Shown piece after piece: positions 4,633-48,356 of a stretch of DNA of 64,000 nucleotides. This DNA comes from Acidimicrobiales bacterium (GTDB taxonomy: Bacteria; Actinomycetota; Acidimicrobiia; Acidimicrobiales; Bin134): the NCBI GenBank assembly GCA_965200775.1, contig OZ241383.1:132280-196279 (forward strand), in the 5' to 3' direction. Each line of letters begins with the position of its first letter. Positions within the stretch are counted from its first letter, which is position 1. The notes below the pieces were generated by a model. It was given only the letters and a program-made list of their open reading frames with translations, had not been told where the DNA came from and searched no databases. The translations under genes were made by a program, and so were the position numbers.

Positions 4633-5907
4633 GTGGCCGAGTTGTTCCAAGCCCCCAAGGGCACTCGTGACATCATGCCCCCGGAGTCGTACCGGTGGCA
4701 GGCGCTTGTCGCGGTGTTCGTCGACGTGGTGGGCCGGGCGGGGTACGGGCTGATTCAGAGCCCCCTGTTCGAGGAGATCGGGGTGTTCCAGCGGTTGGGC
4801 GAGGGAACCGACGTGGTTCGCAAGGAGATGTACGACTTCCACGACAAGGGCGACCGCCACATGGCCCTGAGGCCCGAGGGCACCGCTTCGGTGGTGCGGG
4901 CGTTCAACCAGTACCGTCCCACCACGCCGTGGAAGGTGTGGTACCTGACCCCCTGCTTCCGCTACGAGGAGCCCCAGGCGGGGAGGTTCCGCCAGCATCA
5001 CCAGGTGGGGGCCGAGGCCATTGGCTCGCCCGACCCCGACCTTGATGTCGAGGTGATCGCCCTCCAGCACGACTTCTACCGGGCCTTGGGCCTGAACCAC
5101 CTGTCGCTGCGACTCAACTCCATGGGTAGCCCCGAAGACAGGCAGGCCTACGCCGAGAAACTGGCAGGCTGGTTGGGCGAGCGGCTCGGTGATCTGGACG
5201 AGGCCGACCGGGACAACGTCTCCCGCCATCCGCTTCGGGTGCTGGACTCCAAGAGGGAGCGGACCATGGCGGTGACCGCAGAAGCCCCCGTCATTGTTGA
5301 GAACCTGTCCGCCGAGGCAGCGGCTCACTTCGACCGGGTTCGAGCCGGGTTGGATGCCTTGGGGGTTTCCTACGAGATCGACCCTCGACTGGTGCGGGGC
5401 CTGGACTACTACACCCACTCCACCTGGGAGTTCGCCTCCGAAGCGCTGACCTCGGCCCAGAATGCTGTGGGGGGTGGCGGACGCTACGACGGACTGGCGG
5501 AGTCCCTGGGGGGCAAGCCCGCGCCTGGCGTTGGGTTCGGGGCCGGCATCGAGCGCATCCTGTTGGCTGCCGAGGCCGAAAGTGTCGGGGATGGGCCCGA
5601 GGCGGTGGTGGACGTGTTCGTGGTGGACGTGACCGGGGGAGAGGTCGGGCGCGACCTCACCTTCGAGTTGCGCCGGGCTGGGATCTCCGCCGACCGGGCC
5701 TTCGACGCTCGCTCCATGAAGGCCCAGATGAAGGTGGCCGACCGGTCGGGAGCCCGCCTGGCCCTGCTCATCGGCCCCGACGAGCTGGCCGCCGGCACCG
5801 TCACCCTGCGCCCCCTTCGCACCGCCGGCAACCAAGCCACCCTCCCCCGCGTTGCTCTTGTCCCCGAGATCACCAAACACCTGGAAGCAGACACCCAGCA
5901 GCAGTAG
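4633..5907 (+). CDS. hisS: Histidine--tRNA ligase
   Basis: 424 aa, GTG start. Class II aaRS/HisRS motifs: KGTRD, FRYEEPQAGRFRQHHQ, GGGRYDGL, plus a C-terminal anticodon-binding domain. Confidence 0.95.
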   Translation: MAELFQAPKGTRDIMPPESYRWQALVAVFVDVVGRAGYGLIQSPLFEEIGVFQRLGEGTDVVRKEMYDFHDKGDRHMALRPEGTASVVRAFNQYRPTTPWKVWYLTPCFRYEEPQAGRFRQHHQVGAEAIGSPDPDLDVEVIALQHDFYRALGLNHLSLRLNSMGSPEDRQAYAEKLAGWLGERLGDLDEADRDNVSRHPLRVLDSKRERTMAVTAEAPVIVENLSAEAAAHFDRVRAGLDALGVSYEIDPRLVRGLDYYTHSTWEFASEALTSAQNAVGGGGRYDGLAESLGGKPAPGVGFGAGIERILLAAEAESVGDGPEAVVDVFVVDVTGGEVGRDLTFELRRAGISADRAFDARSMKAQMKVADRSGARLALLIGPDELAAGTVTLRPLRTAGNQATLPRVALVPEITKHLEADTQQQ

Positions 5908-5970
5908 AAGTTCAGCTCAAGAGCCCCTCGGCCCGGTCAAAACCCCGAATCGTGTCGCTGCTCGCCCCGA

Positions 5971-6023
5971 GTTATGCCATAATTCTTTTGATAGCTTCAG
6001 TCAGAAAAGAATTATGGCATATT
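5971..6023. repeat. Palindromic element copy 1: perfect 16-bp arms ATGCCATAATTCTTTT / AAAAGAATTATGGCAT (5974-5989, 6005-6020) with a 15-nt loop
   Basis: Read directly from the sequence. The right arm contains the ATG (6014) of the downstream AlbA_2-type gene. A related copy lies at 7720-7772. Confidence 0.9.
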
Positions 6024-7681
6024 CGTTGTTCCATCCTCGCAGCCCCCGACCTCTTCCGTCGTCCATCTCGCTGGAGCGCTTCGCCCGGGAAGTTGATGGC
6101 GAGAGCAGCGTGCTGGAATTCAAGCGAGGCGATTCTCCCAAGCCAATCGCAGAAGCAGTCACGGCTTTCTCCAACACGAACGGAGGTGTGGTGCTTGTGG
6201 GAGTGGACGACGACGGGTCTGTCCGAGGGGTCAACGCAGGAGAGCAAAAGATCGCCCAGTTGTACAGCGGGATCCACAGCGCTCTGCATGACCACATCAG
6301 GCTGGAGATCCATGTTCTGGCGGTAGGCGACCGGGACCTGCTGGTGGTTGACGTTCCCCGGCGAAGCGATGGGGTCACCCAGATGGGAGACGGACGGGTG
6401 CTAGTCCGCAGGGGAGCGTCGAACCGGGTTCTGATGGGCGATGATTTGCTTTCGTTCGCGGTGAGCCGCACCAGGGCAGGGATTGAATCAGCCGCGACCG
6501 AGGCTAAGCCGGCTGACGCCGACGGCGACCTCTTGGAGCAACTGCGGGTGGCCTGGGATTGGAGGGTGGATGAGGTTGAGGATCGTCTCGTTGAGAACCA
6601 CTTCGCGTCACGCGATGGTGGGGATGTCCGGCTGACGGTCGCCGGGGCATTGTTTCTGTTGGCTGAACCTCAGGCGGTGCTGGGCAAGACCTACGTTGAG
6701 ATTCTGCGCTTCAGAGACCAGTCCGGGGAGTTTGATCAACGGCTGGAGGTAATGGGGGATTTGCCAACCCAGATCCAAGCCACGGTCTCGGTTCTCATGG
6801 GCATGGTCGGCTTTGACACTGCATTCGTGGGGTTGAGAAGAAGGGACCTTCCGCGGCTCCCTGAGCCGGTGGTTAGAGAAGCCCTGGCGAACGCGGTGGC
6901 CCACCGGTCTTACCGGACGACGGGGGCTCCGGTGCGAGTTGAGGTTCACGCTGGCCATGTCGATGTCATTTCTCCGGGGGGTTTCCCCGATCCGGTTACC
7001 CCCGAGAACATCCGAGGTCAGAGCGTGGCCCGCAACCGGAGCGTCATCGGCACGCTGCGACGAATGGAACTAGCCGAGGACGTGGGGAGAGGTGTGGACC
7101 GGATGCAGGACGCCATGGAGGCCAACCTGCTCCCGCCGCCCGAGTTTGTCGAGGTGGCCGACACCGTCCGGGTTCGATTGGCCATGGAGTCGGCGGCTAC
7201 CCCGGATGAACGGGCGTGGGTCCTGGAACTCAGCAGAACCCATGAGCTGGAGCCTGGTGACACCCGTCTATTGGTTGAAGCCTCAAGGCGCGGAGTTGTT
7301 GCCAACTCGGATGTCAGGAATCTGCTGGGGGTGGACGAGCAAGAGGCTAGGAGAATCTGTGAGCGGCTGAAAGCCGCTGAGCTGCTGGAGCAGAACGGCA
7401 ATCGCGGCGGAGCCCGTTATCGAGTTGCCCGAACCATCGGGGGAGGGCGTTGGCAGCCAGTGGCCGAAGAGGAGATCGACCGGCGGGTGTTGGCGCTCGC
7501 GCAAGCCAGTGACGAGCCCCTGACCAACGAGCTGGTGCGGAAAGGCACCGGGCTCGACCGGGTCGAGGCGCTTCAAGCGCTGAACCGGCTGGTGGAAGCC
7601 GGCCACCTGATCCGCGAGGGCGAACGGCGGGGCACCCGCTACGTGAAGGTGGCCCAGAAGAGCAAGCCCTCAGAGACCTGA
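6014..7681 (+). CDS. Schlafen/AlbA_2-domain ATP-binding protein with HATPase_c_4-like core and C-terminal winged-helix repeats (RecG-like putative DNA-binding regulator family)
   Basis: The N-terminus ESSVLEFKRGDSPKPIAEAVTAFSNTNGGVVLVGVDDDGSVRGV is the AlbA_2 signature. The central REALANAVAHRSYRTTGAPVRVEVHAGHVDVISPGGFP is HATPase_c_4-like. Two HTH-like C-terminal segments follow. Start chosen at ATG 6014, because the track ORF start 5852 overlaps hisS. Confidence 0.75.
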   Translation: MAYSLFHPRSPRPLPSSISLERFAREVDGESSVLEFKRGDSPKPIAEAVTAFSNTNGGVVLVGVDDDGSVRGVNAGEQKIAQLYSGIHSALHDHIRLEIHVLAVGDRDLLVVDVPRRSDGVTQMGDGRVLVRRGASNRVLMGDDLLSFAVSRTRAGIESAATEAKPADADGDLLEQLRVAWDWRVDEVEDRLVENHFASRDGGDVRLTVAGALFLLAEPQAVLGKTYVEILRFRDQSGEFDQRLEVMGDLPTQIQATVSVLMGMVGFDTAFVGLRRRDLPRLPEPVVREALANAVAHRSYRTTGAPVRVEVHAGHVDVISPGGFPDPVTPENIRGQSVARNRSVIGTLRRMELAEDVGRGVDRMQDAMEANLLPPPEFVEVADTVRVRLAMESAATPDERAWVLELSRTHELEPGDTRLLVEASRRGVVANSDVRNLLGVDEQEARRICERLKAAELLEQNGNRGGARYRVARTIGGGRWQPVAEEEIDRRVLALAQASDEPLTNELVRKGTGLDRVEALQALNRLVEAGHLIREGERRGTRYVKVAQKSKPSET

Positions 7682-7719
7682 CCCGCAAAGATCTCATAAC
7701 CGGGTTGACTTATGGCCAA

Positions 7720-7772
7720 GTTATGTCAAAATTCTTTTGTAGAGCTCGACAGTAAAAGAATCATGGCATAAC
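7720..7772. repeat. Palindromic element copy 2 (imperfect): GTTATGTCAAAATTCTTTT, 15-nt loop, AAAAGAATCATGGCATAAC
   Basis: Same layout and about 85-90% identity by eye to 5971-6023. It lies 39 nt after the AlbA_2-type gene stop. Its internal ATG is followed by GCA TAA, so there is no ORF. Confidence 0.85.
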
Positions 7773-7857
7773 TCCAAACGGCTGAGGCGCCCCGCCCACC
7801 ACGCCACACCCACTCAACCTCAGCCTAGGACGCGGTGGGCGGCGGGGGCGCCACTGT

Positions 7858-8061
7858 AACGCTCGCTCCATGAAGGCCCAGATGATGGGGGCCGACCGGT
7901 CGGGGTCCCGTCTGGCTCTGTTGATCGGCTCTGACGAGTTGGCCGTCGGCGTCGTCACCGTGCGCCCCCTGCGCGCCGCTGGCGACCAGACCACCCTCCC
8001 CCGAGTCACCGTCGCCACCGGGGTGGCCAAATGCCAAGAAGTAAACAACCGGCAACAGTAA
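7858..8061 (+). pseudogene. hisS: Detached second copy of the hisS 3' end (last ~67 codons plus stop)
   Basis: It translates to NARSMKAQMMGADRSGSRLALLIGSDELAVGVVTVRPLRAAGDQTTLPRVTVATGVAKCQEVNNRQQ*. This aligns without gaps to the hisS C-terminus (5704-5907), with 43 of 66 residues identical by manual alignment. There is no upstream hisS body. Confidence 0.85.
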
Positions 8062-8189
8062 AGAGTGCGATAGTTTAGACACCTCAGTTCGCTGTCATAT
8101 GGTTGGATCACGTTATACAACCTATTCGTTCTGAGAATCGTTGTTTGCTTAAGTTCGACACCCTGGAGCCGATTACTTGGCATTGATGC

Positions 8190-9713
8190 TCAGGCCATAC
8201 GTGCTTCTGATATCATTTTATCAACCACGGGAGTGTCCCAATCATCCCTGACTCTGGCTCCCATAGTTCGAGCGCCTGCTAAGGCATCTTTCGCTCTTAT
8301 TTCGTTAGACATCCATTTGGTCTTTTTGTTCTCTTTGTGAAGTCCCGACATTGTCAAACTATTGCTCTTCCGGCTGTTACACGGCCCACAGATTAGCACT
8401 CGATTAGTGATAAAATTTTCTCCTGCGTCTGACCGTGGCTGTATGTGATCGAGTTCCGTAAATTCGATTTCAAGTTGTCGTCCGCAACCAACGCACACAA
8501 CTTTGTCATCAGGGTTATCAGAAATAATTTGTACTTGAGCTAAGATGTTCTTGATAACCTTATTGGGTAGCTGCTGCCAGGGATCAGAAGCTCTTTGCGT
8601 GCGGATTTTCAATATTGGCACGGTTGATTCATTCTCATCAGTTCGTTCGGGGATTTCTGTGGTGTAATGTACATCCCCAAATGTAATCAATCTGCTTGGA
8701 TTTGCTTCGCCTTCGGCAACGGCGAGACCTTCTTGTACCATTCTATCCAAAACGATCTGGTATGCGCCCTCCCATATATCTATACCGATCCACTGTCTTC
8801 CCAGCTTTTCAGCAGCAATTGGTGTGGTGGAACACCCACAGAATGGGTCGAGCACTATGTCTCCTTTGTTGCTAGATCCTTCGATTATTCTTTTATAAAG
8901 TTCTAACGGTTTGCGGGTAGGGTAGTTGTAATGTTCACTTTTGGGCCCGTGCATAGCGTCTGGTATATCAGACCATATGTTTCCCAAAAGCTTTTCCTTA
9001 TAGATAAACTTCTCATCGTGTTGATCATAGTATTTGATTCGTATATTTCCACTTTTGGTGTAGTGTATTCTACCATGTTCCTCTAACGTCTCCACACTCT
9101 TGTCAGTATAATCGTCTCTAGGGGCCGTGCGAAAATAACCTCTTTCATCCATCTGATATCCGTATTTTGACCGCTTCTTGATGGGAATACTAATGGTTTG
9201 GTACTGTTTATTCCAAGTATGCTCGCCTCCCTTAGTGTAATAGAATATAGTGTCGTGGTTGCGCGGATATTGCTTGGCGATTGCCTTTGCCCCTCTGGCA
9301 GTCTCACCGTACTGCCATATAATGTCATTCCGGTGATTCTTGTAGCCAAAAGCAGCATCTAGAATCAATTTAAGGTAATGGCAGGCTGTGATATCACAAT
9401 GCAAAAACATACTGCCACCATCTCGGAGGACTCTATACATCTCCATAAGCCTGACGGCCATGTAACAAATGTATGCTCCCATACCATCGCTGTGAGATTG
9501 CCTAGCTGCTTCGATGACCGCCCATATCTTTGGCCAGTCATCTTGAATCTGATCTACCCACTCATCGTGAACATCTATTTCCCACCGCCAACGATCCTTG
9601 AACCGCGCTCCCTTCGCAATCCTGTCAGGTGTGGCATGAAAGTCCTTACTCTTGTTGAATGGAGGATCAGTTGCGATTAGATGAACAGTCTCACTGTTGA
9701 TACCACGCAGCAC
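8190..9713 (-). CDS. Beta-class N6-adenine/N4-cytosine DNA methyltransferase fused to a C-terminal HNH nuclease domain. The annotated GTG start truncates the conserved N-terminus (see (GA)13 repeat)
   Basis: Motif IV DPPF (IATDPPFNKSKDF) lies near the N-terminus and motif I IVLDPFCGCSTTPIAAEKLGRQWIGIDI lies late, which is the PF01555-type order. The C-terminus CVGCGRQLEIEFTELDHIQPRSDAGENFITNRVLICGPCNSRKSN is an HNH motif. The gene is AT-rich relative to the genome. The frame stays open upstream of 9713 and encodes NFANRSLYHADNLD, the usual start of this MTase fold. Confidence 0.8.
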   Translation of the reverse strand: MLRGINSETVHLIATDPPFNKSKDFHATPDRIAKGARFKDRWRWEIDVHDEWVDQIQDDWPKIWAVIEAARQSHSDGMGAYICYMAVRLMEMYRVLRDGGSMFLHCDITACHYLKLILDAAFGYKNHRNDIIWQYGETARGAKAIAKQYPRNHDTIFYYTKGGEHTWNKQYQTISIPIKKRSKYGYQMDERGYFRTAPRDDYTDKSVETLEEHGRIHYTKSGNIRIKYYDQHDEKFIYKEKLLGNIWSDIPDAMHGPKSEHYNYPTRKPLELYKRIIEGSSNKGDIVLDPFCGCSTTPIAAEKLGRQWIGIDIWEGAYQIVLDRMVQEGLAVAEGEANPSRLITFGDVHYTTEIPERTDENESTVPILKIRTQRASDPWQQLPNKVIKNILAQVQIISDNPDDKVVCVGCGRQLEIEFTELDHIQPRSDAGENFITNRVLICGPCNSRKSNSLTMSGLHKENKKTKWMSNEIRAKDALAGARTMGARVRDDWDTPVVDKMISEARMA

Positions 9714-9788
9714 ATCAAGGTTGTCCGCATGGTATAGAGAGCGATTGGCGAAGTTTGGTTGTCCTTCTCCTGGTTGTCTCTCTTCTCT

Positions 9789-9814
9789 TCTCTCTCTCTC
9801 TCTCTCTCTCTCTC
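9789..9814 (-). repeat. Dinucleotide microsatellite (GA)13 on the coding (minus) strand, (TC)13 on plus
   Basis: Counted directly. It lies 3 nt downstream of ATG 9817 (minus strand) and upstream of the conserved methyltransferase N-terminus. Confidence 0.95.
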
Positions 9815-9836
9815 CATTATCCGCTCTCTTTTGCCC

Positions 9837-10397
9837 TCAAGGCTTTGCCGTCCGACGTTCACTTGCTAGGATGTCGTCCATCAATGGAAGGTGTTGCCAG
9901 GCATCAGGACAACCCGCAATCGAATGAGCCATTTTGTTGGCACTCACATTATTGATAACTATGCACATCTGATCTGATATGCAGAGCGAGCATTGACTGA
10001 GCCATCCCTCAAGATCTACGACTTGTCTATGCACATGCTCACACTGTGAGTAGCAGTAGGTACTGTATCTCTTGCGTCTGTTGGTCGCCAAAGATGAAAG
10101 TAGAGGGGTGCCCCGACTCATACTGCCAGCATTTCGGTTAGTAGAAGGACTAAGGCCATGGTGTCGACGGCCCAACTCACGGTATGGCCGGTTATAGCAG
10201 GGCGCGTCAGCAGATGTGCCTTTCTCAGGTTCGACGTAACCTGATGCCAAATAGGTCAATGTCGCTGCACAGATGTCGGGAACGGCTCTCGCAGAAATTC
10301 GGCAGACCCTGTGGCTGCTCACACTGGCTACTGTAACCCCTGTGACAAGCAAGCCAGCGGCTTTCGGCTGATCGTCGGCGTGGATGTGGCGATTCAA
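9837..10397 (-). CDS. Hypothetical Cys/His-rich protein (186 aa), possible zinc-ribbon protein, immediately upstream of and co-oriented with the MTase-HNH gene
   Basis: It is the only long ORF in this ~50% G+C stretch. It contains C-x3-C...C-x2-C (CYSQCEHVHRQVVDLEGWLSQCSLC). Its TGA (9837-9839) lies 20 nt before ATG 9817. No family was recognised. Confidence 0.35.
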   Translation of the reverse strand: MNRHIHADDQPKAAGLLVTGVTVASVSSHRVCRISARAVPDICAATLTYLASGYVEPEKGTSADAPCYNRPYRELGRRHHGLSPSTNRNAGSMSRGTPLLSSLATNRRKRYSTYCYSQCEHVHRQVVDLEGWLSQCSLCISDQMCIVINNVSANKMAHSIAGCPDAWQHLPLMDDILASERRTAKP

Positions 10398-10627
10398 TGC
10401 TCTAGTCTCATCGGTCGCTAGGTCTCAAGAACAGCAGATCCTCAGCATCCCACGTCTTGCGGGGTTGATGTGAAGGGTAGTCCGTAGGGCTTTGTGTCAT
10501 CCTTGGATCAAGCACCGGCTTCGAGTTCGGATCCCCCATTTTGGGCGGAACCCCTCTTCCCCTCCCCTCGCCTCCCGATTCTAGGGGCTGCTTCCCGGGG
10601 GTGGGGGTAGTGGCCTTTGGACTGTTC

Positions 10628-11235
10628 TGAGGTTCACCCCTTTTCGTGGAGGCATGCTCAATAGGGAGAGTTATGCCGCGACCATGAAGACAGTTGGACC
10701 GTGAGTTCCGTGACGGGGCTGTGCGGAATGTTGAGGAGACGGGTCAGTTGGTGGCTCAGGTGGCCCAGGACTTGGGTATCAACGAGGGCACGCTCGGGAA
10801 CTGGGTGTATCGACAGCGCGCTGAGCGGGCCGGCGGGCTGTCAGCCGATGAGCGGGCCGAGCTGGTGCGGCTACGTACCGAGAACGCGACGTTGCTGATG
10901 GAGCATGATGTGCTTAAACGATCTGTGGTTCTTTGGGGCAACGAGGTCACGCGGTGACGGCCGGGTTCATCGCCGCTGTCAATCCACCGGACGCACAGGC
11001 AACGCCCTGGACAACGCCTCAGCCAATTCGTTCTTTTCCGCCCTCACCCACGAACTCATCAACCGCCGCCAATGGACAACCCGAGACCAAGCCCGACAAA
11101 AAATCACCCTATGGATAACTGGCTGGTACAGCCACCAACGCCTCCACAGCACCCTCGGCATGATCCCTACCATAGAATACGAACAGATCCACCCCACCGA
11201 ACCCAACCCTCCACGAATGGGAGGGGGATTCGACA
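10628..11235 (+). mobile_element. IS3-family insertion sequence remnant with a large internal deletion
   Basis: Candidate terminal inverted repeats: TGAGGTTCACCCCTTTTCGTGGAGG (from 10628) and the reverse complement of ...CCTCCACGAATGGGAGGGGGATTCGACA (ending 11235). They share TG...CCCCT...TTCGTGGAGG. The remnant holds an OrfA-like HTH ORF followed directly by the extreme C-terminus of OrfB. Confidence 0.6.
10694..10957 (+). pseudogene. IS3-family transposase OrfA (HTH), 5' end frameshifted
   Basis: REFRDGAVRNVEETGQLVAQVAQDLGINEGTLGNWVYRQR plus a leucine-zipper-like tail (ELVRLRTENATLLMEHDVLKR). Upstream ATG CCG CGA CCA TGA suggests a broken original start (MPR...). Confidence 0.7.
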
Positions 11236-11249
11236 CGCCCGCCACGTAG
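10989..11249 (+). pseudogene. IS3-family transposase OrfB, C-terminal fragment only
   Basis: GNALDNASANSFFSALTHELINRRQWTTRDQARQKITLWITGWYSHQRLHSTLGMIPTIEYE matches the end of the rve/DDE domain (DNA..ESFF..LK.E......R.HS.LG). The catalytic core is missing. Confidence 0.65.
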
Positions 11250-11572
11250 GCCTCGGTGACCACCGCTCGCAGCGCCCGGTCGATGCGCCGTCGCGGTTCC
11301 AGAAGCGAAGGGAAGAAGTTTCCATTCCTCAGTTTGGGGATCTTCAGGTTCACGTCACCGGCCTGGGTGGCGAGGAGCCGTGGCCGGTGGCCGCTGCGCT
11401 CGGTCACACGAGCGTCGCTGTGCTCGTAGCGTCCTGCTCCAATGGCTTCGGCAGCTTCGGCCTTGATCAGCTCTTGGAGCACCAGTTCCACAGCCCCACG
11501 GAGCAAACCCGCCCCACCGCCGGCGCGGAACGTTTCCCACAGCCTCGCCGTGGTATTATTGGCCAAGGTCAT
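11231..11572 (-). pseudogene. IS256-family (Mutator-type) transposase, N-terminal ~114 codons, truncated by the IS3 remnant
   Basis: MTLANNTTARLWETFRAGGGAGLLRGAVELVLQELIKAEAAEAIGAGRYEHSDARVTERSGHRPRLLATQAGDVNLKIPKLRNGNFFPSLLEPRRRIDRALRAVVTEAYVAGVS is the conserved IS256 N-terminus. Similarity stops exactly at the IS3 right end (about 11231-11235). Confidence 0.75.
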
Positions 11573-11708
11573 CGGTGTGTCCTCCTCAATGAGTGAGTGG
11601 TGTTTCTCACCGAGGGTCACACCGCTGGCACCCCGCCCCCCACCATCACAAGGGACACCCCCCTTGAGGTTTACACAGGCTGCTTGCCTCTGGGATGGTT
11701 GGCTGGTA

Positions 11709-11900
11709 ATGATGAACCGATTCAAACGTAGCAGAAGGTACAGGAGCAGGAGGACATCGGCGCTAGTATTGGCACTTGTGATGGGAACCGTTGCTCTCTT
11801 GCCCCTCTCTGTTGAGGCACACGGCGAACACCCATTGAAGCATGAGTCGTCTGATCGTTGTAGCAATTCTCCTGACTTATGTTTTGGTCATGCTTGCTAG
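11709..11900 (+). CDS. Candidate small secreted Cys/His-rich peptide (63 aa)
   Basis: MMNRFKRSRRYRSRRTSALVLALVMGTVALLPLSVEA|HGEHPLKHESSDRCSNSPDLCFGHAC. It has a basic n-region, a hydrophobic core and a VEA-H cleavage-like site, with a 26-aa mature part carrying 3 Cys and 4 His. The track ORF 11442..11900 extends it upstream through IS256-related sequence. No homolog was recognised. Confidence 0.25.
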   Translation: MMNRFKRSRRYRSRRTSALVLALVMGTVALLPLSVEAHGEHPLKHESSDRCSNSPDLCFGHAC

Positions 11901-12419
11901 CATCACGATGCTTGTCTGAGGTACTGGGCACCCTTGGGAATGAAGGCAGATGTCGAGTGTGATGACGAATGTTACATCGATATGGTGCGAACTTGTCGTG
12001 CCATATCGTCCGGACTATCGAAATAGATTAGGTGGTATATTGACTTGGAGTTCATCGGTAGGCTGGCGATATTATATCGCCTTGACGGCGGATTAGGGGT
12101 TCCAAGAACTGTTCCTTGGGACGAGATATGTCCTGAATATAGATTGTGTGGAACTCTACACCCTTTTTCATGGTTGTTTTGTGATGCAATTATCCGATCT
12201 AGGCTTCATATTGCTGTGACATAACCATATGAATATCTGTTAACCCATGTGTGGATTCTGCGATTGACAGGTCTGCCGATTAGGCATTCTAGATCAGGCC
12301 AAACGCCTTTATGTCAGGATACGTGGAAACGTACAATAATCTACTTTGCCGCCTAATTCTTGCTAAGTGTTGAAGCAAAATTGAGAATTTGATCGGAGGC
12401 ATACTGCAAGATATCGTAA

Positions 12420-12896
12420 TCACATATTTGAAGCGACTAGAACAAGGAGTCCTGCAATTGTCACCGTGATACCAACTACCATCAATAGAATAGCCCACTT
12501 CAGTTTGTCAGTCCTTCTCTTATTGGTTGTCCTTAAACCTTCAAGGATGCGTATCGAACTCTCGATTGAACTACTGAGAATGCTACCTTGCCCGTGTTCT
12601 GACCACCAGATCAACCATTTGGTGTTTATTCTGGGATAAGACACCGCTGCGCCAACTAGAATGCCAAAAGTCCCCGAGAGGGCTAGTGCCACAAGTCCGA
12701 CAGACGATAGAACAAATGATTCAAGAGTTACTTGGTCGGCAAGCAATCCCAGCGCAGTGGCAACTAGTGAGGCAACAGTAAGTGAGAAACGGGCAACTGT
12801 TGCTCCTCTACTGTCCAATGAGAGTTGCTGTTGCTCCTCCCAGTTCTGCTCCGTCTTGATTAGTGCTATGAGGTCCTGCGTGTCGTCATCCACCAC
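12420..12896 (-). CDS. Small integral membrane protein (158 aa, three predicted TM helices), unknown function
   Basis: GTG start. The product has a polar N-terminus (DDDTQDLIALIKTEQNWEEQQQ), a TM hairpin (FSLTVASLVATALGLLADQV / FVLSSVGLVALALSGTFGILVGAAV), a ~45-aa loop and a C-terminal TM (WAILLMVVGITVTIAGLLVLVA). The gene is AT-rich. Confidence 0.6.
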   Translation of the reverse strand: MVDDDTQDLIALIKTEQNWEEQQQLSLDSRGATVARFSLTVASLVATALGLLADQVTLESFVLSSVGLVALALSGTFGILVGAAVSYPRINTKWLIWWSEHGQGSILSSSIESSIRILEGLRTTNKRRTDKLKWAILLMVVGITVTIAGLLVLVASNM

Positions 12897-12996
12897 GCTC
12901 TACCCACTCGATTTTATCCGGCTCGGGTGGGGGCTCTGAAGGAGGTGAGGAATCGCTAGTTTGCGTTGGCTGTTCGTCTGGTGGGCCAAGGCTCAT
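12886..12996 (-). CDS. Possible upstream mini-ORF (36 aa, Pro/Ser/Glu-rich) overlapping the start of the 3-TM gene by 11 nt
   Basis: ATG 12996 ... TGA 12886-12888 encodes MSLGPPDEQPTQTSDSSPPSEPPPEPDKIEWVERGG. It lies between the promoter-like site and the TM gene and could simply be 5' UTR. Confidence 0.2.
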   Translation of the reverse strand: MSLGPPDEQPTQTSDSSPPSEPPPEPDKIEWVERGG

Positions 12997-13038
12997 ATAT
13001 TCCCTGCCAGTGGGTAGTGATTCGGAAAATGCTTGGCT

Positions 13039-13067
13039 ATGATACTTCAGCTTTAGTGCCTTGTCAA
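13039..13067 (-). promoter_or_regulatory. Near-consensus sigma70-type promoter: TTGACA, 17 nt spacer, TATCAT
   Basis: On the minus strand the -35 TTGACA is at 13067-13062 and the -10 TATCAT at 13044-13039, with an exactly 17-nt spacer. It is oriented toward the mini-ORF/3-TM gene. Confidence 0.5.
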
Positions 13068-13121
13068 CAGGGAAAGGGTCGCGCGCCGAATTCTGACGAT
13101 GCTTCGCTGGGGGAGTTCCTG

Positions 13122-14135
13122 TCAGTCCAACGAGATGAGGCGGGCTAGTGGTTCGGGGTCCTGTTTGTTGTCGTAGCGGACGTAGCCTGAGTTTCTGCGT
13201 TCGACGATGCCCCTGAGTTCCTCGTCGAGGTCGTCGGTGTTGAGCCCGCGTTCCCGTGCGCGTCGAAGCACGCGGTGTGATACTGCGATGGCGGTGTCCA
13301 GGTAGTCGTACAGGTGCTCGTCGGCTTCGGCGTGTATGACGTCGAGGTCGTCGGGGTAGGTCGCTTCTGTCCGCCACTTGCCGATCTGCTTCGGCGTGAG
13401 TTGGTGGCTGCCAACCAGCTTCCTCAGTTCGGCGCGGGCGGGTTCGTCGGGTATCTGGGTGAGTCCGTCTTTGATACTGTGGCTGGCGTCTCGTACTTTG
13501 TCCGGGTGCAGGTCGTGCATGATCGCCGTGGCCTTGAGGCAGACTTCAACAACCATCGACGAATCAGCGCACACGCCCATAATCCTGTTGCCTCTTTTGA
13601 TCTCGGGACGGCTTGAAGACGCGCCCTTGCGTGGTTGCTCCGACAGCGGTGGCACCATGCGGGCCGAGAGGTTGATCAGGGCAATGTCCACTTTGGTTTT
13701 GAGATATTTTTGGGTTTCTTCTTTTTCGGTCATGGGCCTCACGCAGGTTTTGTTCCAGTTGGCCTTGTCGCGGGGCGCGCGCCCGCACAGCAAAACGGTG
13801 TCTGTGCTGATCTGGTGTTCGAAGGTGTTGGTCACGGCCCGACGGCTTTCCCATTCGGGCAGGTCAGAGACGTAGAGCTGCACGTGGAACGGGACCACCT
13901 CGCGGGTGGCCTGCGTTAGCCGGATCTCGATGTTGCGTCGTTCGTCGTAGTCGATGTCGGTGAACACCACGTACAAGTCAATGTCCGAGCGGGCAGTGGC
14001 ATCGCCGCGGGCCACCGAACCGTACACATACACCTCCGCGTCGCCCTGAGCGGCGGCCAGCACAGCCTCGGCCGCCCGCTGAGCGTCGGCCCGTGTGGGT
14101 GCTGTACGGGTATCTGCCAGAGCCACTACGGCCAC
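13122..14135 (-). CDS. Pol-beta-superfamily nucleotidyltransferase (MNT-like) fused to a helical, HEPN-like C-terminal domain
   Basis: The N-terminal YGSVARGDATARSDIDLYVVF is the GS-x-RG...D-x-D minimal nucleotidyltransferase motif. The C-terminal helical region carries SHSIKDGL...KWRTEATY, resembling the H...R-x4-Y pattern of NTase-associated HEPN domains (inference). The gene is high in G+C, unlike the block downstream of it. Confidence 0.65.
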   Translation of the reverse strand: MAVVALADTRTAPTRADAQRAAEAVLAAAQGDAEVYVYGSVARGDATARSDIDLYVVFTDIDYDERRNIEIRLTQATREVVPFHVQLYVSDLPEWESRRAVTNTFEHQISTDTVLLCGRAPRDKANWNKTCVRPMTEKEETQKYLKTKVDIALINLSARMVPPLSEQPRKGASSSRPEIKRGNRIMGVCADSSMVVEVCLKATAIMHDLHPDKVRDASHSIKDGLTQIPDEPARAELRKLVGSHQLTPKQIGKWRTEATYPDDLDVIHAEADEHLYDYLDTAIAVSHRVLRRARERGLNTDDLDEELRGIVERRNSGYVRYDNKQDPEPLARLISLD

Positions 14136-14210
14136 CTCCCAACCCCAAGCCTAACGGTTTGCCCGCGATTTGGTGAGGGTGCCCTGCTGGGCATCTACAC
14201 CATCTCGGGG

Positions 14211-15104
14211 TCAGGCGGGGTTGTTCACGACAAGGCGGCGGAGGCCCTCCTGCCAGCTCACCATGCGGTCGGGGCGCAGGGCTGCGATGCGGGTGGTGTC
14301 CATGACCGTGCTGGGGATGGCGGTGTCGGCCTCCACGATTTGAGGCGGATCGCAGCCGTCAACCTCGGCCATGTGCGCGCACCAGTCGGCGATCGACACC
14401 AGCTCGGGGCTGGCCCAGTTGAGGGTGGTGGCCGGTACCGACGCCTGGTCGAGCAGAACGGGAATGTCGGCCGCAATGTCCTCGTCGTGGATGAGGTTGT
14501 AGCGGGCCCCATCGGTGTTGACCTCGATGGCCATCCCGGCCCGCATCATCAGCAGATGGAAGAACGGCCAACCGGCGGTATCGCCGTAGGGCACGTTGAG
14601 CCGGGCGATCACGGTTGGCAGGTTGAACTCTCGTGCTGCGAACCGGGCCACCGACTCTCCGGCAATCTTTCCTATCGAATAGGTCGGCATCATGTGAGCG
14701 TGATGATCTCCGTGTGGGCTGTCCTCGGTTAGCGGCTCCCCGCCGCTGGGCTTGTACACCGCTCCCGACGAGCAATGCAGGAACGCATCGGCATTGCGGA
14801 AATGGCTCATCAGGTGCCCGGTGGCCTCGGAGCAGACGGCCAGATCGGTCTTCCAGTCGCCCGACTTGATGACCGCCATGTTCAACACCACATCCACGTC
14901 ACGGGGAACGGGGGAGAAGTCCGGGTCGACGAAGTCCACGACCACGCACTCCACCCCGGCGGCCTCCAAATCGGCACGAGCATCGGCATCGGAGAACCGG
15001 GCCAGAGCGATCACCCGGTTGTCGACGGCCAGGGACTTGGCGAGTGGCGGGCCCACCATCCCCGTGGGTCCGGTCAAAACGATGGTCTTGCCGTTCAGTT
15101 CCAT
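14211..15104 (-). CDS. NAD(P)-dependent epimerase/dehydratase family protein (extended SDR)
   Basis: N-terminal Rossmann motif KTIVLTGPTGMVGPPLA; 297 aa with SDR-like length and layout. Confidence 0.75.
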   Translation of the reverse strand: MELNGKTIVLTGPTGMVGPPLAKSLAVDNRVIALARFSDADARADLEAAGVECVVVDFVDPDFSPVPRDVDVVLNMAVIKSGDWKTDLAVCSEATGHLMSHFRNADAFLHCSSGAVYKPSGGEPLTEDSPHGDHHAHMMPTYSIGKIAGESVARFAAREFNLPTVIARLNVPYGDTAGWPFFHLLMMRAGMAIEVNTDGARYNLIHDEDIAADIPVLLDQASVPATTLNWASPELVSIADWCAHMAEVDGCDPPQIVEADTAIPSTVMDTTRIAALRPDRMVSWQEGLRRLVVNNPA

Positions 15105-15178
15105 GATGTCAACCCCCGTGGCGGTCCGGCCTGTTTCACGGTCCGAAATCTAGCCTGCCTCCTCGGTATCCTTCGGCC

Positions 15179-17128
15179 ATGCGACGGCTCCTGATTTCAC
15201 TGCTCATGGCTGCGGCGCTCATCGCCGCGAGCTGCGGGGGCGACAGCAGCGACGTCGGGGACCCCTCGGCTATTCCCACCGAAGAAGCCACCCTCGTTGC
15301 AACCCCCACCGTTTCGGCCGAGGACTCGGCAACCAGCCCGCAGGAATCAACCCCGGAGCCCTCAACCCCGGAGCCTTCACCTTCCAGTACCGAGGCCGGT
15401 ACTCCGGCGCCCGATCCGACCCCAACCGGCGAGCCCGAATCCCGTCCCAGCGACCCCTACTTCGCCCTCGACCGGGTGATGGACATCAGCATTGAGATCG
15501 ACACGGACGACTGGGACACGCTGCGCCATCAGGGTCGCACTCTCCAGGACGTGATTGCGGAGATAGCTGAGCACAATTTTTCCCGTCCTTTTGCGAGCAT
15601 CTACTCGTGGTTTTCGGCCACGGTGACCGTGGACGGCGAGGCCTACGACAGCGTGGGCGTGCGCAAGAAGGGTTTCGTCGGCTCGCAAAGCGACTCCAAG
15701 CCATCCCTCAAGCTCCGCTTCGACCGGTACGTGGACGACCAGGCCGTCGACGGGGTGGTGGAGCGGATGACCCTGAACAACAGCGCCCAAGACCCTTCGA
15801 TGATCAACACCTGCATGTCGTATGCGGTCTTCGCCGCTGCGGGCAACCCGGCGCCCCGCTGCAACTTCGCTACCGTGGAGGTCAACGGCGCAAACCTGGG
15901 GTTGTACGTACACGTCGAGGAGTTCAAGGCTCCGTTCCTGGAGCACCATTTCGGCACCGCAGACGGCAACCTTTACGAGGGGACGGTCAGCGACTTCACC
16001 CCCATCTACCGGGGCACCTTCGAGAAGAAAACCAACGAGGACGACGACGACTGGTCGGATGTGGACGCCGTGGTGGCTGCCCTTGAGGATCCTTCCGACT
16101 CCGGTCTCGAAGCGTTGGGCGAGCTCGTGGATCTGGACCGTTTCCTGTCGTTCTGGGCCACCGAGGTGCTGGTGGGGCACTGGGACAGCTACTCCGGCAA
16201 CCGCAACAACTACTGGTTCTACCGGACGCCCGACGGCCCCTTCGTGTTCCTGCCCTGGGGAGCCGACGGCACGTTCCACCTCAGCGACGACCCCAACCCA
16301 TTCGACGGCATCGGGAACCCGCCGCCCTCGGTGCTGGCCCTTACCGCCATCCCCAACCGCCTGTACAACCACCCCGATTGGCGGGTGGCCTACGTGAGCC
16401 GGCTGAAGGAGATCCTCGACACCGCATGGGACGAGGAGAAGCTGCTGGAATTGGTGAACGAAATGGTCGCCATCGTGCAGGCCCACGCCCTGCCTGCGGA
16501 AGCGGCCGCCGCCGCCGAGGACACCGAGCGGGTGCGCGATTTCATCCTCAAGCGAAGGGGCGAGATCCTGGCCGACCTCACCCCCGAACCCCCCGAATGG
16601 CCGGGGTCCGGGAACCTCACCCCTGAGATCGAAAGCTCGGGCACCCTGGAGGTGAAGTTTGAAACCACTTGGGGAAGCGATCAGAGCCCCAACCCCCTGG
16701 CCGAGGGGGAGGTGAGCAGCTTGGAGTTGAACGGGTCGGAGGAGTCAACCGACAACACCGGGATATTCGCCGGCTACGCCACGGCGGAAACCCGGCAACT
16801 GCTCCCCGGTGTGGAGGATCTGGCGGCCATAACCGGGGCCAGTCTCAACGAGGATGGTTCCATCAACGGGATGGTGGTGTTGGTGGAGCTGAGCCTGTTT
16901 ACGGCCGGGGCCACCCTGGAAATCAACCGGGACACCATCGCAGGAGGGGTGTGGAACTTGCCTCCGGGCGGTTCGGAGCCGGACTGGTTCTCACCGTTTA
17001 CCAGCGGAGAGCTGGTGCTGGATGAGGCGGGTACAACCCACGGCGCGATTATCTCGGGAACCTTCTCCGGTGCATACGGGTTCGACCCGCCTCCACCCTT
17101 AGCATCAAGTGTCGATTATGCGAACTGA
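15179..17128 (+). CDS. CotH-family (spore-coat-protein-H-like kinase fold) lipoprotein
   Basis: Lipobox LIAASCGG and an S/P/T/E-rich linker. The CotH core is KPSLKLRFDRY...LNNSAQDPSMINTCMSYAVFAAAGNPAPRCNFATVEVNGANLGLYVHVEEFKAPFLEHHF...GNLYEG...HWDSYSGNRNNYWFY. The last four codons (YAN*) lie inside a duplicated aspS start. Confidence 0.75.
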   Translation: MRRLLISLLMAAALIAASCGGDSSDVGDPSAIPTEEATLVATPTVSAEDSATSPQESTPEPSTPEPSPSSTEAGTPAPDPTPTGEPESRPSDPYFALDRVMDISIEIDTDDWDTLRHQGRTLQDVIAEIAEHNFSRPFASIYSWFSATVTVDGEAYDSVGVRKKGFVGSQSDSKPSLKLRFDRYVDDQAVDGVVERMTLNNSAQDPSMINTCMSYAVFAAAGNPAPRCNFATVEVNGANLGLYVHVEEFKAPFLEHHFGTADGNLYEGTVSDFTPIYRGTFEKKTNEDDDDWSDVDAVVAALEDPSDSGLEALGELVDLDRFLSFWATEVLVGHWDSYSGNRNNYWFYRTPDGPFVFLPWGADGTFHLSDDPNPFDGIGNPPPSVLALTAIPNRLYNHPDWRVAYVSRLKEILDTAWDEEKLLELVNEMVAIVQAHALPAEAAAAAEDTERVRDFILKRRGEILADLTPEPPEWPGSGNLTPEIESSGTLEVKFETTWGSDQSPNPLAEGEVSSLELNGSEESTDNTGIFAGYATAETRQLLPGVEDLAAITGASLNEDGSINGMVVLVELSLFTAGATLEINRDTIAGGVWNLPPGGSEPDWFSPFTSGELVLDEAGTTHGAIISGTFSGAYGFDPPPPLASSVDYAN

Positions 17129-17184
17129 CTACTGCGGCGAGCTGAAGGCCGGTGAAAATGCGAACTGACTACTGCGGAGAGCTG
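17118..17184 (+). repeat. Direct duplication of the aspS start: ATGCGAACTGACTACTGCGG(C/A)GAGCTG at 17118-17144 and 17158-17184 (period 40 nt)
   Basis: 27 nt with one mismatch. Copy 1 would encode MRTDYCGELKAGE and copy 2 (the real aspS) encodes MRTDYCGELRTGD. Confidence 0.9.
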
Positions 17185-18897
17185 CGGACGGGCGACGTGG
17201 GCCGGGAGGTCTCGGTGTGCGGGTGGGTGGACCGTCGCCGCGAGCACGGCGATCACCTGGCGTTCATCGACCTGAGGGACCGCAGCGGGGTGATCCAATG
17301 CGTGGTGGACGAGCGCCACGACCTGCGCTCCGAGTACGTGGTCCGCATCACCGGAACGGTGCGGCCCCGGCCCGAGGGTACGGTCAACCCCAAGCTGGAC
17401 ACCGGCGAAGTGGAGGTGGGCGACTGCCGGGTGGAGGTGCTGTCTGCCTCCGAGTCCCCGCCGTTCCCCATCCATGCTCGAACCGAGGTGGACGAGAACG
17501 TGCGTTTGCGCCACCGCTACGTGGACCTGCGGGGTGAGCGACTCCAGCGGAACCTGAGGCTGCGAGCGGCGGTGAACAGCGCCATCCGCCGCTCGGTGGA
17601 GGACCAGGGATTCATCGAGATCGAGACCCCGATGCTGGTTGCTTCCACACCCGAGGGGGCCCGCGATTTCGTGGTGCCGTCCCGTTTGCATCCCGGCCGG
17701 TTTTACGCACTGCCCCAGTCGCCCCAGATCTTCAAGCAGCTCTGTATGGTGGGGGGCCTCGACCGCTACTACCAGATCGCCCGCTGCCTGCGGGACGAAG
17801 ACCTCCGGGCCGACCGCCAGTTCGAGTTCATGCAGCTCGATCTTGAGGCAAGCTTCGTGGGCCAGGACGAGGTGTTGGGTTTCATCACCGAGGCGGTGGC
17901 GGCGGCAGCCGAGGCGGTCACCGGCATCCGCCCCCCCGATCCGATCCACATGACATGGACCGACGCCATGGAACGGTTCGGGTCGGACAAACCCGATGTG
18001 CGCTTCGGCCTGGAGCTGATCGAGCTGACCCCGCTGTTCGAGGGCACCGAGGCCAAGGTGTTCCAGGTGGAATGCATCAAGGGCATCAACCACAAGGGGG
18101 GCAGCACGAGCCTGGGCCGCAACGCCATCGACGAGCTGACCCGCAAGTGCCAACAGTGGGGGGCCAAGGGTCTGGCCTGGTTCCGGGTGGGCGACGACGG
18201 GACGCTCGACGGAGCCTTGACCAAGTTCATGTCCGACCAGGAACAGGCAGCGCTGGGCCCGGCCATGGGAGCGGAGCCCGGCGACCTGCTGTTGCTGATT
18301 GCCGACCGTCGCCAGAAGGTGCGAGACGTGCTCGGTCTGCTCCGCCTGGAGCTGGGCCGCCCGCCCATCAACGAGGGGGGGCTCAACTTTGTGTGGGTCA
18401 CCGATTTCCCGCTGTTTGAGGCCATCGACGACCAGGGCCGGCCGGTGGCCGCTCACCACCCGTTCACCATGCCCCATCCCGACGACGTGGACCTGCTGGA
18501 CGGCGAGGGTGAGGACCTGCTGTCCGTGCGCTCTCAGTCTTACGACCTGGTGCTGAACGGCTGGGAGCTGGGTTCGGGCAGCGTGCGGATTCACCGTCCC
18601 GATATCCAGCGGTCGGTATTCAGGACGTTGGGCATCAGCGACTCGGAGGCCGACGATCGCTTCGGCTTCTTGCTCGACGCCTTCCGCTACGGTGCCCCTC
18701 CCCATGCCGGTTTCGCGTTCGGCATCGACCGGCTGGTGGCCATCTTGGCTGGGGAGGAGAACATCCGCGAGGTGATCGCCTTCCCCAAGACCCAGTCGGG
18801 GGCCGATCCGTTGTCCAACTCGCCCACCGCCATCGCCGACCGCCACCTCGACGAGCTCGGACTCCGCCTGCTGCCGCCCCCCGCTTCAGGGGATTGA
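17158..18897 (+). CDS. aspS: Aspartate--tRNA ligase
   Basis: MRTDYCGELR N-terminus with an OB anticodon-binding domain. Class II motifs: FYALPQSPQIFKQLCMVGG, YYQIARCLRDEDLRADRQFEFMQLD, GGAPPHAGFAFGIDRLV. The track start GTG 17152 is two codons upstream. Confidence 0.95.
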   Translation: MRTDYCGELRTGDVGREVSVCGWVDRRREHGDHLAFIDLRDRSGVIQCVVDERHDLRSEYVVRITGTVRPRPEGTVNPKLDTGEVEVGDCRVEVLSASESPPFPIHARTEVDENVRLRHRYVDLRGERLQRNLRLRAAVNSAIRRSVEDQGFIEIETPMLVASTPEGARDFVVPSRLHPGRFYALPQSPQIFKQLCMVGGLDRYYQIARCLRDEDLRADRQFEFMQLDLEASFVGQDEVLGFITEAVAAAAEAVTGIRPPDPIHMTWTDAMERFGSDKPDVRFGLELIELTPLFEGTEAKVFQVECIKGINHKGGSTSLGRNAIDELTRKCQQWGAKGLAWFRVGDDGTLDGALTKFMSDQEQAALGPAMGAEPGDLLLLIADRRQKVRDVLGLLRLELGRPPINEGGLNFVWVTDFPLFEAIDDQGRPVAAHHPFTMPHPDDVDLLDGEGEDLLSVRSQSYDLVLNGWELGSGSVRIHRPDIQRSVFRTLGISDSEADDRFGFLLDAFRYGAPPHAGFAFGIDRLVAILAGEENIREVIAFPKTQSGADPLSNSPTAIADRHLDELGLRLLPPPASGD

Positions 18898-43917: not shown

Positions 43918-44697
43918 TTACGCCCCCGCTTGGGCCAGCTCGTGCTGGAGGGCCTCCAGTTCGGCGCCACCTGCCATGAGCTGGGTCAGCTCGGCCTGCG
44001 ACAGCTCTTCCTTGGCCCAGTTGCCCATCGACTGACCCCGGTTCAGGATCACGAAGCGGTCACCCACCGGGTAGGCGTGGTTGGGGTTGTGGGTGATGAA
44101 GATCACGGCCAACCCCTGGTCGCGGGCCTCGACGATGCGCCGCAGCACCACCCCCGACTGCTTCACTCCCAGCGCCGAGGTTGGCTCGTCGAGTATCAGA
44201 ACCCGGGCCCCGAAGTAGCTGGCCCGGGCGATGGCCACCGACTGCCGCTCACCACCGGAGAGGGTGCCGACGGTCTGGTCGATGTCGCGGATGTCGATGC
44301 CCATCTTGCCCATCTCCTCCTTGGCGATGCGCTTGGCCCCCTCGATGTCGATCTGGCGGAAGGGCCAGATGCCGGTTTTGGGCTCCGACCCGAGGAAGAA
44401 GTTCCGCCACACCGACATGAGCGGCACCATGGCCAGGTCCTGGTACACGGTGGCAATGCCCCGGGCCAGCGCCTCGCGGGGCGAGTTGAAGCGCACCTCC
44501 TCGCCCTCCATGAGCAGCTTGCCCTCATCGTGCTGATGCACACCGGCGAGGATCTTGATGAAGGTGGACTTGCCCGCCCCGTTGTCGCCCAGCACGCAGG
44601 TGACCTCGCCGGGATTCACCGTTGTTGTCACGCCGGTGAGGGCGATGATGTTCCCGTAGAACTTCGAGATGTTGTGGAGTTCGAGGAAGTCGGCCAT
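43918..44697 (-). CDS. Sugar ABC transporter ATP-binding protein (single NBD, FrcA-like)
   Basis: Walker [10 protein letters not shown], signature LSGGERQ, Walker [11 protein letters not shown]; 259 aa. Confidence 0.9.
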
Positions 44698-44761
44698 CAG
44701 ACGGTCTCCTTGGTGATGGTTTGCCGTTGGGTCTTCGGTTCTCGGTTCGTTGTGGCGGCGG

Positions 44762-47008: not shown

Positions 47009-47186
47009 GAGAGCCCCCCTCTCTGCCTGATGATACTGTGTTGGTTGGGCGTTGCGTGTTTGGTGGTGTCCTTCGGATGCTGTTTCTTCGTCTAACTGTA
47101 AGTCCAAACTTTAGACCAAGAGGCTGGGCCGGGTGGGAGAACCTGGCTTGGATTGTGATCGCAACGTGAGCTGCCCGGTCATGCGA

Positions 47187-48342: not shown

Positions 48343-48356
48343 AGTTATTTTCCCTC

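Follow-up and report, generated by a model that had tools for sequence, protein, structure and literature searches.

The interval between hisS and aspS in an uncultured Acidimicrobiales bacterium holds two sets of accessory genes, one behind the other, and the second set begins with a displaced 3' end of hisS and finishes with a displaced 5' end of aspS. The window, that is, the whole stretch of 64,000 nucleotides analyzed here (contig OZ241383.1, positions 132,280 to 196,279), belongs to a metagenome-derived genome, and all coordinates below are counted from its first letter. The order of the interval and its flanks is: full hisS, a first cargo block (block A, 5908-7815), a 5'-truncated hisS, a second cargo block (block B), a 3'-truncated aspS and full aspS. 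This is the order expected from an inserted fragment of the locus, and not that of a tandem duplication. An earlier note on this DNA had reported the two copied gene ends and proposed that a second version of the interval had been joined to the first. Both copies are present where the note placed them, with a similarity far beyond chance, and the block 7816-17157 does start with a 5'-truncated hisS and end with a 3'-truncated aspS. We favor, with moderate confidence, the view that illegitimate or one-sided recombination brought together two alleles of a single locus.

The window has a GC content of 66%, and its nearest public relatives are metagenome-assembled genomes (MAGs) of sponge-associated Candidatus Poriferisocius. 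The local gene order is relA (2309-4585), hisS (4633-5907), 11.25 kb of other genes, aspS (17158-18897) and rarA (18973-20307). Both flanking synthetase genes are intact and lie on the plus strand: hisS, on the left, encodes 424 residues with 76-83% protein identity to genus relatives, and aspS, on the right, encodes 579 residues with 87-90% identity. The last 67 codons of the intact hisS (5704-5907) will be called tail 1.

The hisS relic consists of two pieces, also on the plus strand. Piece 1 (7816-7854) covers hisS codons ~273-285 (the TSAQNAVGGGGRY region) and has suffered a 1-nt deletion, while piece 2, or tail 2 (7858-8061), covers the last 67 codons and ends with its own stop codon (8059-8061). 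About 220 nt of hisS are gone between them. When 5705-5906 is aligned with 7859-8060, identity is 79% over 202 nt without gaps (blastn E 1e-46). At the protein level, 43 of 67 residues are identical in tails 1 and 2 (E 8e-30), and tail 2 matches the Pfam family HGTP_anticodon. A hisS profile of the genus (nhmmer) recovers the two pieces in collinear order, piece 1 at profile positions 816-851 (E 0.0055) and piece 2 at 1072-1247 (E 4.7e-29). Piece 1 also matches the orthologous hisS site in more than 12 relatives by blastn-short (best E 5e-5). Hence, the remnant is longer than the earlier note had described, as it starts at 7816 and not at tail 2.

The same note had called the hisS copy undecayed, and this description has to be abandoned. 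Differences between tail 2 and the resident tail are distributed over the three codon positions as 17/11/16. Positions 1 and 2 together hold 64% of the differences, compared with 40 ± 6% for 183 similarly diverged pairs of functional orthologues. Of 33 residues that the genus conserves, tail 2 departs at 7, among them the invariant KAQMKVADRSGA motif, the resident tail at 2 and relatives at 0-3. Because an internal deletion and a 1-nt deletion are combined with a neutral-like substitution pattern, the remnant is taken to be an old pseudogene fragment whose frame has stayed open by chance. Annotators should note that neither the 59-63-residue 'ORF' (open reading frame) at 7870-8061 nor the first ATG at 17118 marks a gene.

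At the opposite end of block B, the aspS relic (head 1, 17118-17157, plus strand) consists of codons 1-13 (MRTDYCGELKAGE) and one additional nucleotide. The sequence ATGCGAACTGACTACTGCGGCGAGCTG is found at 17118 and again, with one mismatch, at 17158 (17118-17144 against 17158-17184), for an expectation of 0.00 in shuffled sequences, and the relic matches the aspS profile of the genus with an nhmmer E of 6e-5. Mismatches between the two aspS copies are clustered: of the 40 nt compared, the final 13 hold 7 of the 8 (hypergeometric p ~6e-4). Codons 10-13 are AAG GCC GGT GAA in the relic, CGC GCC GGT GAC in relatives and CGG ACG GGC GAC in the resident gene. Because these relic codons resemble the aspS of other species more than that of the resident, all 39 nt are regarded as an aspS fragment of a different allele rather than a slipped copy of the resident gene.

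These observations bear on another explanation in which no second allele is involved: duplication in situ, either by slippage or as a segment, of the hisS tail and the aspS head, followed by divergence. The two tails are indeed nearest relatives with shared derived residues, and the aspS copies are only 40 nt apart. However, if the segment from hisS codon 273 to aspS codon 13 had been duplicated in tandem, the aspS relic would precede the hisS relic and the cargo would be present twice as well, while the order found is the opposite one and blocks A and B share nothing. Neither the clustering of aspS mismatches, with variant codons that match alleles of other species, nor the greater closeness of piece 1 to other species than to the resident gene is in keeping with copying in situ. 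We therefore consider such a duplication highly improbable.

An assembly chimera of co-existing strains carrying different islands at the locus is also conceivable in a metagenome-derived genome, all the more as repeats of the flanking genes are located at both seams. The junctions were checked in other assemblies. Short-read contigs from five other runs (SRR33960549, -50, -52, -53 and -54), found by exact-protein look-up, cross both 7858 and 17118 at 99.7-100% identity and jointly tile positions 1-20912 of the window. Contig L082 represents a strain variant that differs by 10 substitutions and by 20 nt within a (CT)n run, and its arrangement is unchanged; it has a C at 17178, which renders the aspS 27-mer repeat perfect. 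All sampled strains of the window species share one arrangement. Because the junctions recur in the assemblies of five other runs and the identical repeats at the seams are only 27 nt long, a chimera is very unlikely, and we give it next to no weight.

Where the second version came from is less straightforward. The earlier note had attributed it to a related genome. No donor lineage for the hisS relic was found among the sampled species, and the nearest relative of tail 2 is the resident tail (36 of 177 differences, compared with at least 48 to any sampled species). Tails 1 and 2 have derived traits in common (LLIG, RPLR, TLPRV, a terminal QQ and equal length), and these shared derived residues indicate that the two versions stem from closely related lineages. 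In addition, the first 27 nt of the aligned segment (7859-7885) are identical to 5705-5731, including the rare synonymous codons GCT CGC TCC. Piece 1, on the other hand, is identical to relative L022 at 35 of 39 positions and to the hisS of the window itself at 29 of 39. To account for these conflicting affinities, either later gene conversion between the tails or, over a stretch of 39 nt, sampling noise is required; we read them tentatively as two close alleles followed by some gene conversion between direct repeats. A comparison of the 67-residue tail 2 with 5.8 billion proteins was uninformative, as its sole match was the 59-residue ORF of the window itself and the word prefilter missed even the resident hisS.

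The 27-nt identity raises the possibility of a site-specific event, and this can be judged together with the anatomy of block A. The block (plus strand) contains a single gene, 6014-7681, with AlbA_2 (Schlafen-like) and HATPase_c_4 domains (Pfam). The gene is flanked by two copies of an AT-rich palindrome of ~57 nt, P1 (5967-6023) and P2 (7716-7774), which are ~85% identical, and a GC-rich spacer (7775-7815) follows P2. The DNA folding z-scores of P1 and P2 are -6.8 and -3.9, a promoter-like hexamer pair overlaps each palindrome, and P1 includes the AlbA_2 start codon. The composition of the block is mildly atypical, with a GC content at third codon positions (GC3) of 0.72, compared with 0.86-0.88 in host genes. 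The closest homologues of the AlbA_2 protein are only ~50% identical.

If block A, or A followed by B, were an integrative element inserted site-specifically at the 3' end of hisS, the 27-bp block would be the core of its attachment (att) site and the integrase would have been lost. The perfect repeat at the 5' edge of tail 2, with unusual synonymous codons common to the resident, would fit such an origin, and so would the paired palindromes that bracket the AlbA_2 gene. Duplicated gene ends are, moreover, a classic footprint of islands. Integrase-driven islands that supply a substitute gene end are known in protein-coding genes, at the 5' end of dusA (PMC4482086) and, for SGI1-like elements, at the 3' end of trmE (PMC8409611); as in the window, a partly divergent duplicated gene end with a short identical block lies beside the intact gene. 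The likeness does not extend further. Scans for integrase, resolvase or recombinase domains found none in 10 ORFs of the interval (Pfam) or in 7 cargo proteins (PADLOC, NCBIfam). The identical block lies off the edge of the duplication, since hisS homology extends 5' of it (7816-7854) and the true boundary is only 29/39 identical, so that the block cannot be the outer boundary expected of an att core. Neither the AlbA_2 cassette nor the palindrome nor a relic was found at hisS in any of 28 genus relatives, so recurrence at the same site is not seen either. Last, the aspS head copy adjoins aspS and not the far end of the element, a position that site-specific integration cannot attain. For these reasons, we regard a site-specific element as improbable.

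Several candidate identities were also tried for the palindromes and rejected. Integron attC sites are discarded, as the outer ends (GTTATG ... CATAAC/CATATT) are the reverse of 5'-RYYYAAC ... GTTRRRY-3' and the interval has no integrase; dif-like Xer sites were dismissed because of the dimensions of the palindromes (arms of 17-21 nt, 15-nt spacer). A 17-mer of the palindrome is present in 25 viral contigs, once in each and never in palindromic form, and these are chance matches. A GC-rich hairpin at 7786-7851 is not significantly above shuffles (z -1.8) and is partly made of relic piece 1. Rfam and tRNA scans of 5908-17157 yielded no tRNA, other RNA family or credible RNA gene, the sole match being a microRNA model on the palindrome, far below threshold. 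No further copies of the palindrome were detected in the window or in the first 80 loci of relatives (L001-L080; relatives' loci are labelled from L001 onward).

We then asked how the interval looks in relatives. The order relA-hisS-aspS-rarA is kept in 75 of 80 Acidimicrobiales loci. Outside the genus of the window, aspS comes next after hisS in 52 of 53 loci, with a spacer of -1 to 125 bp in 50 of the 52. Inside the Ca. Poriferisocius-like genus, represented by 24 species representatives and two metagenome contigs (26 informative species), the spacer is 10-90 bp in 14 species and 1.5 to >10 kb in the other 12. At least six different cargo gene sets were found in these intervals. A secreted trypsin-like peptidase directly follows hisS in five species, and a conserved 408-residue protein with a C-terminal HNH domain is encoded ~170 nt upstream of aspS in five relatives (L001:3674-4900, L002:11418-12644, L005:12678-13904, L016:14632-15858 and L004:20194-21246). 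Further cargo includes Fic and DUF2510 proteins; a DUF1156 protein; a protein of >3200 residues with He_PIG repeats; an AAA_14/DUF4143 ATPase accompanied by a ~1380-residue protein and an AbiEii toxin; and an IS3-like element (L087). None of the cargo genes of the window is present in the hisS-aspS interval of any relative.

Cargo states are interleaved on a neighbor-joining tree of aspS, and several gains and losses are therefore required. The window sits on a long branch of this tree, with 13% nucleotide divergence from its nearest relative. Altogether, these observations support the view that the interval is a genus-level hotspot, a variable slot for accessory genes, with the proviso that variability was compared between species only. 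The suggestion of such a slot in the earlier note is thus borne out at the level of the genus. The full arrangement of the window is not uniform among relatives, and no hisS or aspS relic was found in any of their intervals. Because cargo-bearing relatives lack relics, ordinary turnover of the slot is taken to be clean, which is consistent with recombination in homologous flanks, and the window would record an aberrant event. The notion in the earlier note that alternative islands are swapped by flank homology stands to this extent, as a mechanism compatible with relic-free relatives.

Some neighboring features of these loci deserve mention. The relA-hisS spacer also varies in the genus (L001-L080), from 15 bp to 4.6 kb; therefore, variable slots exist on both sides of hisS. 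One relA-hisS spacer (L009:7386-9215) contains an AlbA_2-family gene that is 30% identical to that of block A and is preceded by nested AT-rich palindromes of other sequence. In three relatives with a much lower GC content (49-57%) and a 76% identical hisS (L020, L023 and L024), hisS-aspS adjacency has been lost: no aspS is found within 10 kb, and seven or eight unannotated ORFs, conserved as a series, come after hisS.

Hotspots flanked by conserved core genes have been described by Oliveira et al. (2017, PMC5635113), and hotspots of defence islands are known in E. coli (PMC10121019). As in those cases, conserved, syntenic core genes frame a varying content, no mobile element is recognizable, turnover presumably takes place by homologous recombination in the flanks, and the cargo is partly foreign in composition and partly defence-like. 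Signs of horizontal origin are found here in the foreign first part of block B and in remnants of IS3 and IS256 insertion sequences (IS). The differences are that the flanks are hisS and aspS, and that variation is seen between species of an uncultured sponge-symbiont genus and not between strains.

How two versions of such a slot came to be stacked can be reconstructed only tentatively. The hisS-aspS spacer, normally a few to ~100 bp in Acidimicrobiales, has become in this genus a slot for accessory-gene turnover. Version 1 would be the continuous backbone made of hisS, the AlbA_2 cassette and aspS. Version 2 would be a fragment that runs from hisS codon ~273 through the cargo of block B, from a methyltransferase-HNH gene to a CotH kinase gene, to aspS codon 13. 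The two would have been joined at non-homologous junctions, one at ~7815/7816 and the other within AAAA at 17154-17157. In the most economical scenario, one event suffices: a linear fragment of this same locus, derived from a sister lineage or a close relative, would have been inserted immediately 5' of the aspS start codon, either during break repair or by recombination with one-sided homology. The roles may equally be the other way round, the arms of version 1 having recombined into a genome that carried version 2. The truncated ends, without function, have decayed since then, while selection would have kept both intact synthetase genes.

One-sided events of this kind have precedents. Homology-facilitated illegitimate recombination (HFIR) is reportedly known from the original work of de Vries and Wackernagel and of Prudhomme et al., which is cited in PMC5361080. 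It has been documented experimentally (PMC3240628) in transformation and conjugation, where foreign DNA enters beside a homologous anchor and forms a non-homologous joint at the other end. The window may show the same configuration, and aspS leaders of relatives (...caaaATG) make an AAA microhomology possible at 17154-17157. Here, HFIR would be a candidate mechanism, and both ends may be illegitimate.

A second precedent is provided by orphan arrays at rhs and type VI secretion system (T6SS) loci, whose proposed origin is an insertion with one-sided homology by which old 3' ends are pushed downstream (Kirchberger et al. 2017, PMC5361080, where Jackson et al. 2009 is cited for rhs displacement). 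In rhs, cdi and T6SS arrays, an intact gene is followed by a 5'-truncated older 3' end with its own old cargo, and stacking is rare while clean replacement is common. The order hisS, block A, hisS relic (codons ~273-285 and 358-424), block B is of this type. In contrast with those arrays, the gene involved is a housekeeping synthetase, and no polymorphic toxin domain or toxin/immunity pair is present, as the displaced end is the anticodon-binding domain of HisRS. There is a single displaced copy, a mirror-image relic of the 5' end of the downstream gene accompanies it, and no benefit of the kind conferred by retained immunity genes is evident. The likeness would thus be one of mechanism only and not of family membership.

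The precedent of displacement arrays lends some appeal to a scenario in which an original hisS-B-aspS genome underwent two distinct one-sided events, both by homology-facilitated illegitimate recombination, with A as the newcomer and B as the old resident. In the first event, DNA anchored in hisS or relA would bring a new hisS 3' part and the AlbA_2 gene and join at host hisS codon ~273, displacing the old hisS end and block B downstream ('C-terminal displacement'). In the second, DNA anchored in aspS or rarA, with its left end just upstream of the ATG, would join at codon 13/14. The left junction resembles that of orphan 3'-end arrays: intact gene, new cargo, and a 5'-truncated old copy with old cargo (PMC5361080). 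In favor of this scenario, the second part of block B (B2) is host-like in composition and block B bears old IS scars, while block A is compact and slightly atypical in GC3. The possible AAA microhomology would fit the second joint. The price is two rare events, one at each end of the interval, where one suffices. Furthermore, sliding-window identity between the resident hisS and relatives shows no recombination breakpoint, albeit with poor resolution. Since this scenario predicts the same final sequence as a single capture, present data do not separate them; we consider two events possible, though unlikely.

The joining of two alleles, which we continue to favor, faces a number of difficulties. 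No genome was found in which either version stands by itself, be it version 1 or version 2. The former would be recognized by 7790-7815 directly joined to ATGCGAACTGAC. The latter would be recognized by an intact hisS in which the tail-2 haplotype marker (...CAGATGATGGGGGCC...) is continuous with codons 286-357, and by an aspS beginning ...GAGCTGAAGGCCGGTGAA with an in-frame continuation. A metagenome scan with hisS added only two more genus-level relatives, none closer than 82%, and no cargo gene has a close homologue anywhere (CotH ≤72%, AlbA_2 ~50%). Within the hisS relic, it is awkward that piece 1 has its best matches in other species and not in the resident hisS, while piece 2 shows the opposite, and the perfect 27-nt identity with rare synonymous codons is not predicted by simple capture. 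Without recourse to selection for aspS expression, one would not expect a priori a junction no more than 4 nt away from the aspS start codon. The data are compatible with either direction of the event and with either arrival order of A and B. In addition, the supporting assemblies apparently all come from one study (SRR33960549-54), and their agreement speaks for reproducibility and not for independent populations.

A bolder view is that a dedicated agent keeps the slot open and that the relics are footprints of the repair of nuclease-induced breaks, in which the homologous locus was captured from another cell. Candidates are the 408-residue HNH protein and AlbA_2. The HNH gene could be a selfish nuclease tied to the slot and, if an agent exists, a homing-type nuclease that cuts next to the aspS start; the palindrome-bracketed AlbA_2 gene could be a new small mobile cassette without integrase. 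We hold this view to be rather improbable. If true, what looks like an anecdotal scar would stand for a defined mechanism by which islands form between essential genes of reduced symbiont genomes. The locus would be notable only if the opening of the slot could be traced to the palindrome pair with AlbA_2 or to the HNH gene beside aspS.

The composition of the interval, which the earlier note had proposed to profile, distinguishes the foreign first part of block B (B1, 8062-12950; GC 42-55%, tetranucleotide z 7-13) from the mildly atypical block A and from the host-like B2 (13122-17128; GC3 0.76-0.84, z near 0). B1 starts with a fusion of an N6/N4-methyltransferase (MTase) and an HNH nuclease (8190-9713, minus strand), the MTase part of which is 34-36% identical to actinophage methylases. 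Next comes ORF186 (9837-10397, minus strand), for which no assignment could be made. The (CT)n microsatellite that differs by 20 nt between strains lies between these two genes, near 9782-9812, and one of the short-read assemblies has a contig end at the same place. Remnants of DDE transposases of the IS3 family (10694-11249, plus strand) and the IS256 family (10979-11572, minus strand) follow, and B1 also encodes a 158-residue transmembrane protein (12420-12896, minus strand). An IS3-family remnant at 10627-10974 is 77% identical at the nucleotide level to L002:4576-4923, located upstream of relA; this match and the IS3-like element in the slot of L087 indicate that the IS family circulates in the genus. 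An inverted repeat around the low-GC part of B1 (8095-8111 / 12216-12232, 14/17) is within the chance range, though it could mark the ends of a decayed element.

B2 contains three genes. The first encodes a nucleotidyltransferase (NTase) with a helical C-terminal domain of the HEPN family (13122-14135, minus strand); 26 of 61 family members match Pfam HEPN, and a structure model (predicted local distance difference test score, pLDDT, 92) resembles enzymes of the MNT/ANT type. It is followed by an NAD-dependent epimerase (14211-15104, minus strand) and by a short-form CotH kinase (15179-17128, plus strand). In the protein collection searched, the CotH family is very large (1182 matches at E≤1e-20), and the few matches with a named source include Ca. 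Poriferisodalis and a Chloroflexi MAG. Its homologues are mostly longer, with a C-terminal lamin-tail (LTD) domain that the window copy lacks; the frame of this copy ends in the linker.

The earlier note had described the cargo as defence-flavored. The MTase-HNH fusion, the AlbA_2/HATPase_c_4 gene and the NTase-HEPN-family protein agree with this view in part. PADLOC reported matches at the domain level only, without partner genes: the MTase-HNH fusion matched MTase_II/III, AlbA_2 the Schlafen part of a pAgo model, and the NTase PDC-S09/M05A. No complete known defence system was detected by PADLOC, and the epimerase and CotH gave no matches. Besides, 2.8 kb of block B are made of the host-like epimerase and CotH genes, and IS3/IS256 remnants are also present. 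Elsewhere in the window, a mild dip in GC (60-64% against 66-70%) extends over ~14 kb (44000-58000), upstream of the only tRNA gene of the window, tRNA-Lys (61266-61339, minus strand).

The aspS relic may have left a mark on the expression of its neighbor. The CotH stop codon lies inside the relic (ATGCGAACTGA). With two aspS starts 40 nt apart, the relic forms a 16-codon upstream ORF (uORF; 17118-17168, MRTDYCGELKAGENAN*) that overlaps the start of aspS by 11 nt and ends in the same motif, 8 nt past the start of the real aspS ATG. These overlaps suggest a chain of translational coupling from CotH to the uORF and then to aspS. A tentative interpretation is that transcripts reading through from the CotH side probably account for aspS expression now, and that translation of aspS may be coupled via the uORF of the relic.

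No new kind of system is involved, and the locus is otherwise an ordinary example of island growth in an unstudied lineage. Its interest lies in the existence of a gene-exchange slot between two essential synthetase genes in an uncultured lineage of sponge symbionts, and in the preservation of a rare fossil of an aberrant outcome in which alleles would have been stacked instead of swapped. Such stacking would show that closely related cells have exchanged versions of the slot, and that islands grow in part by joining of the one-sided or non-homologous kind. In practical terms, functions peculiar to particular strains of these symbionts, defence genes and CotH kinases among them, could be sought in the slot.

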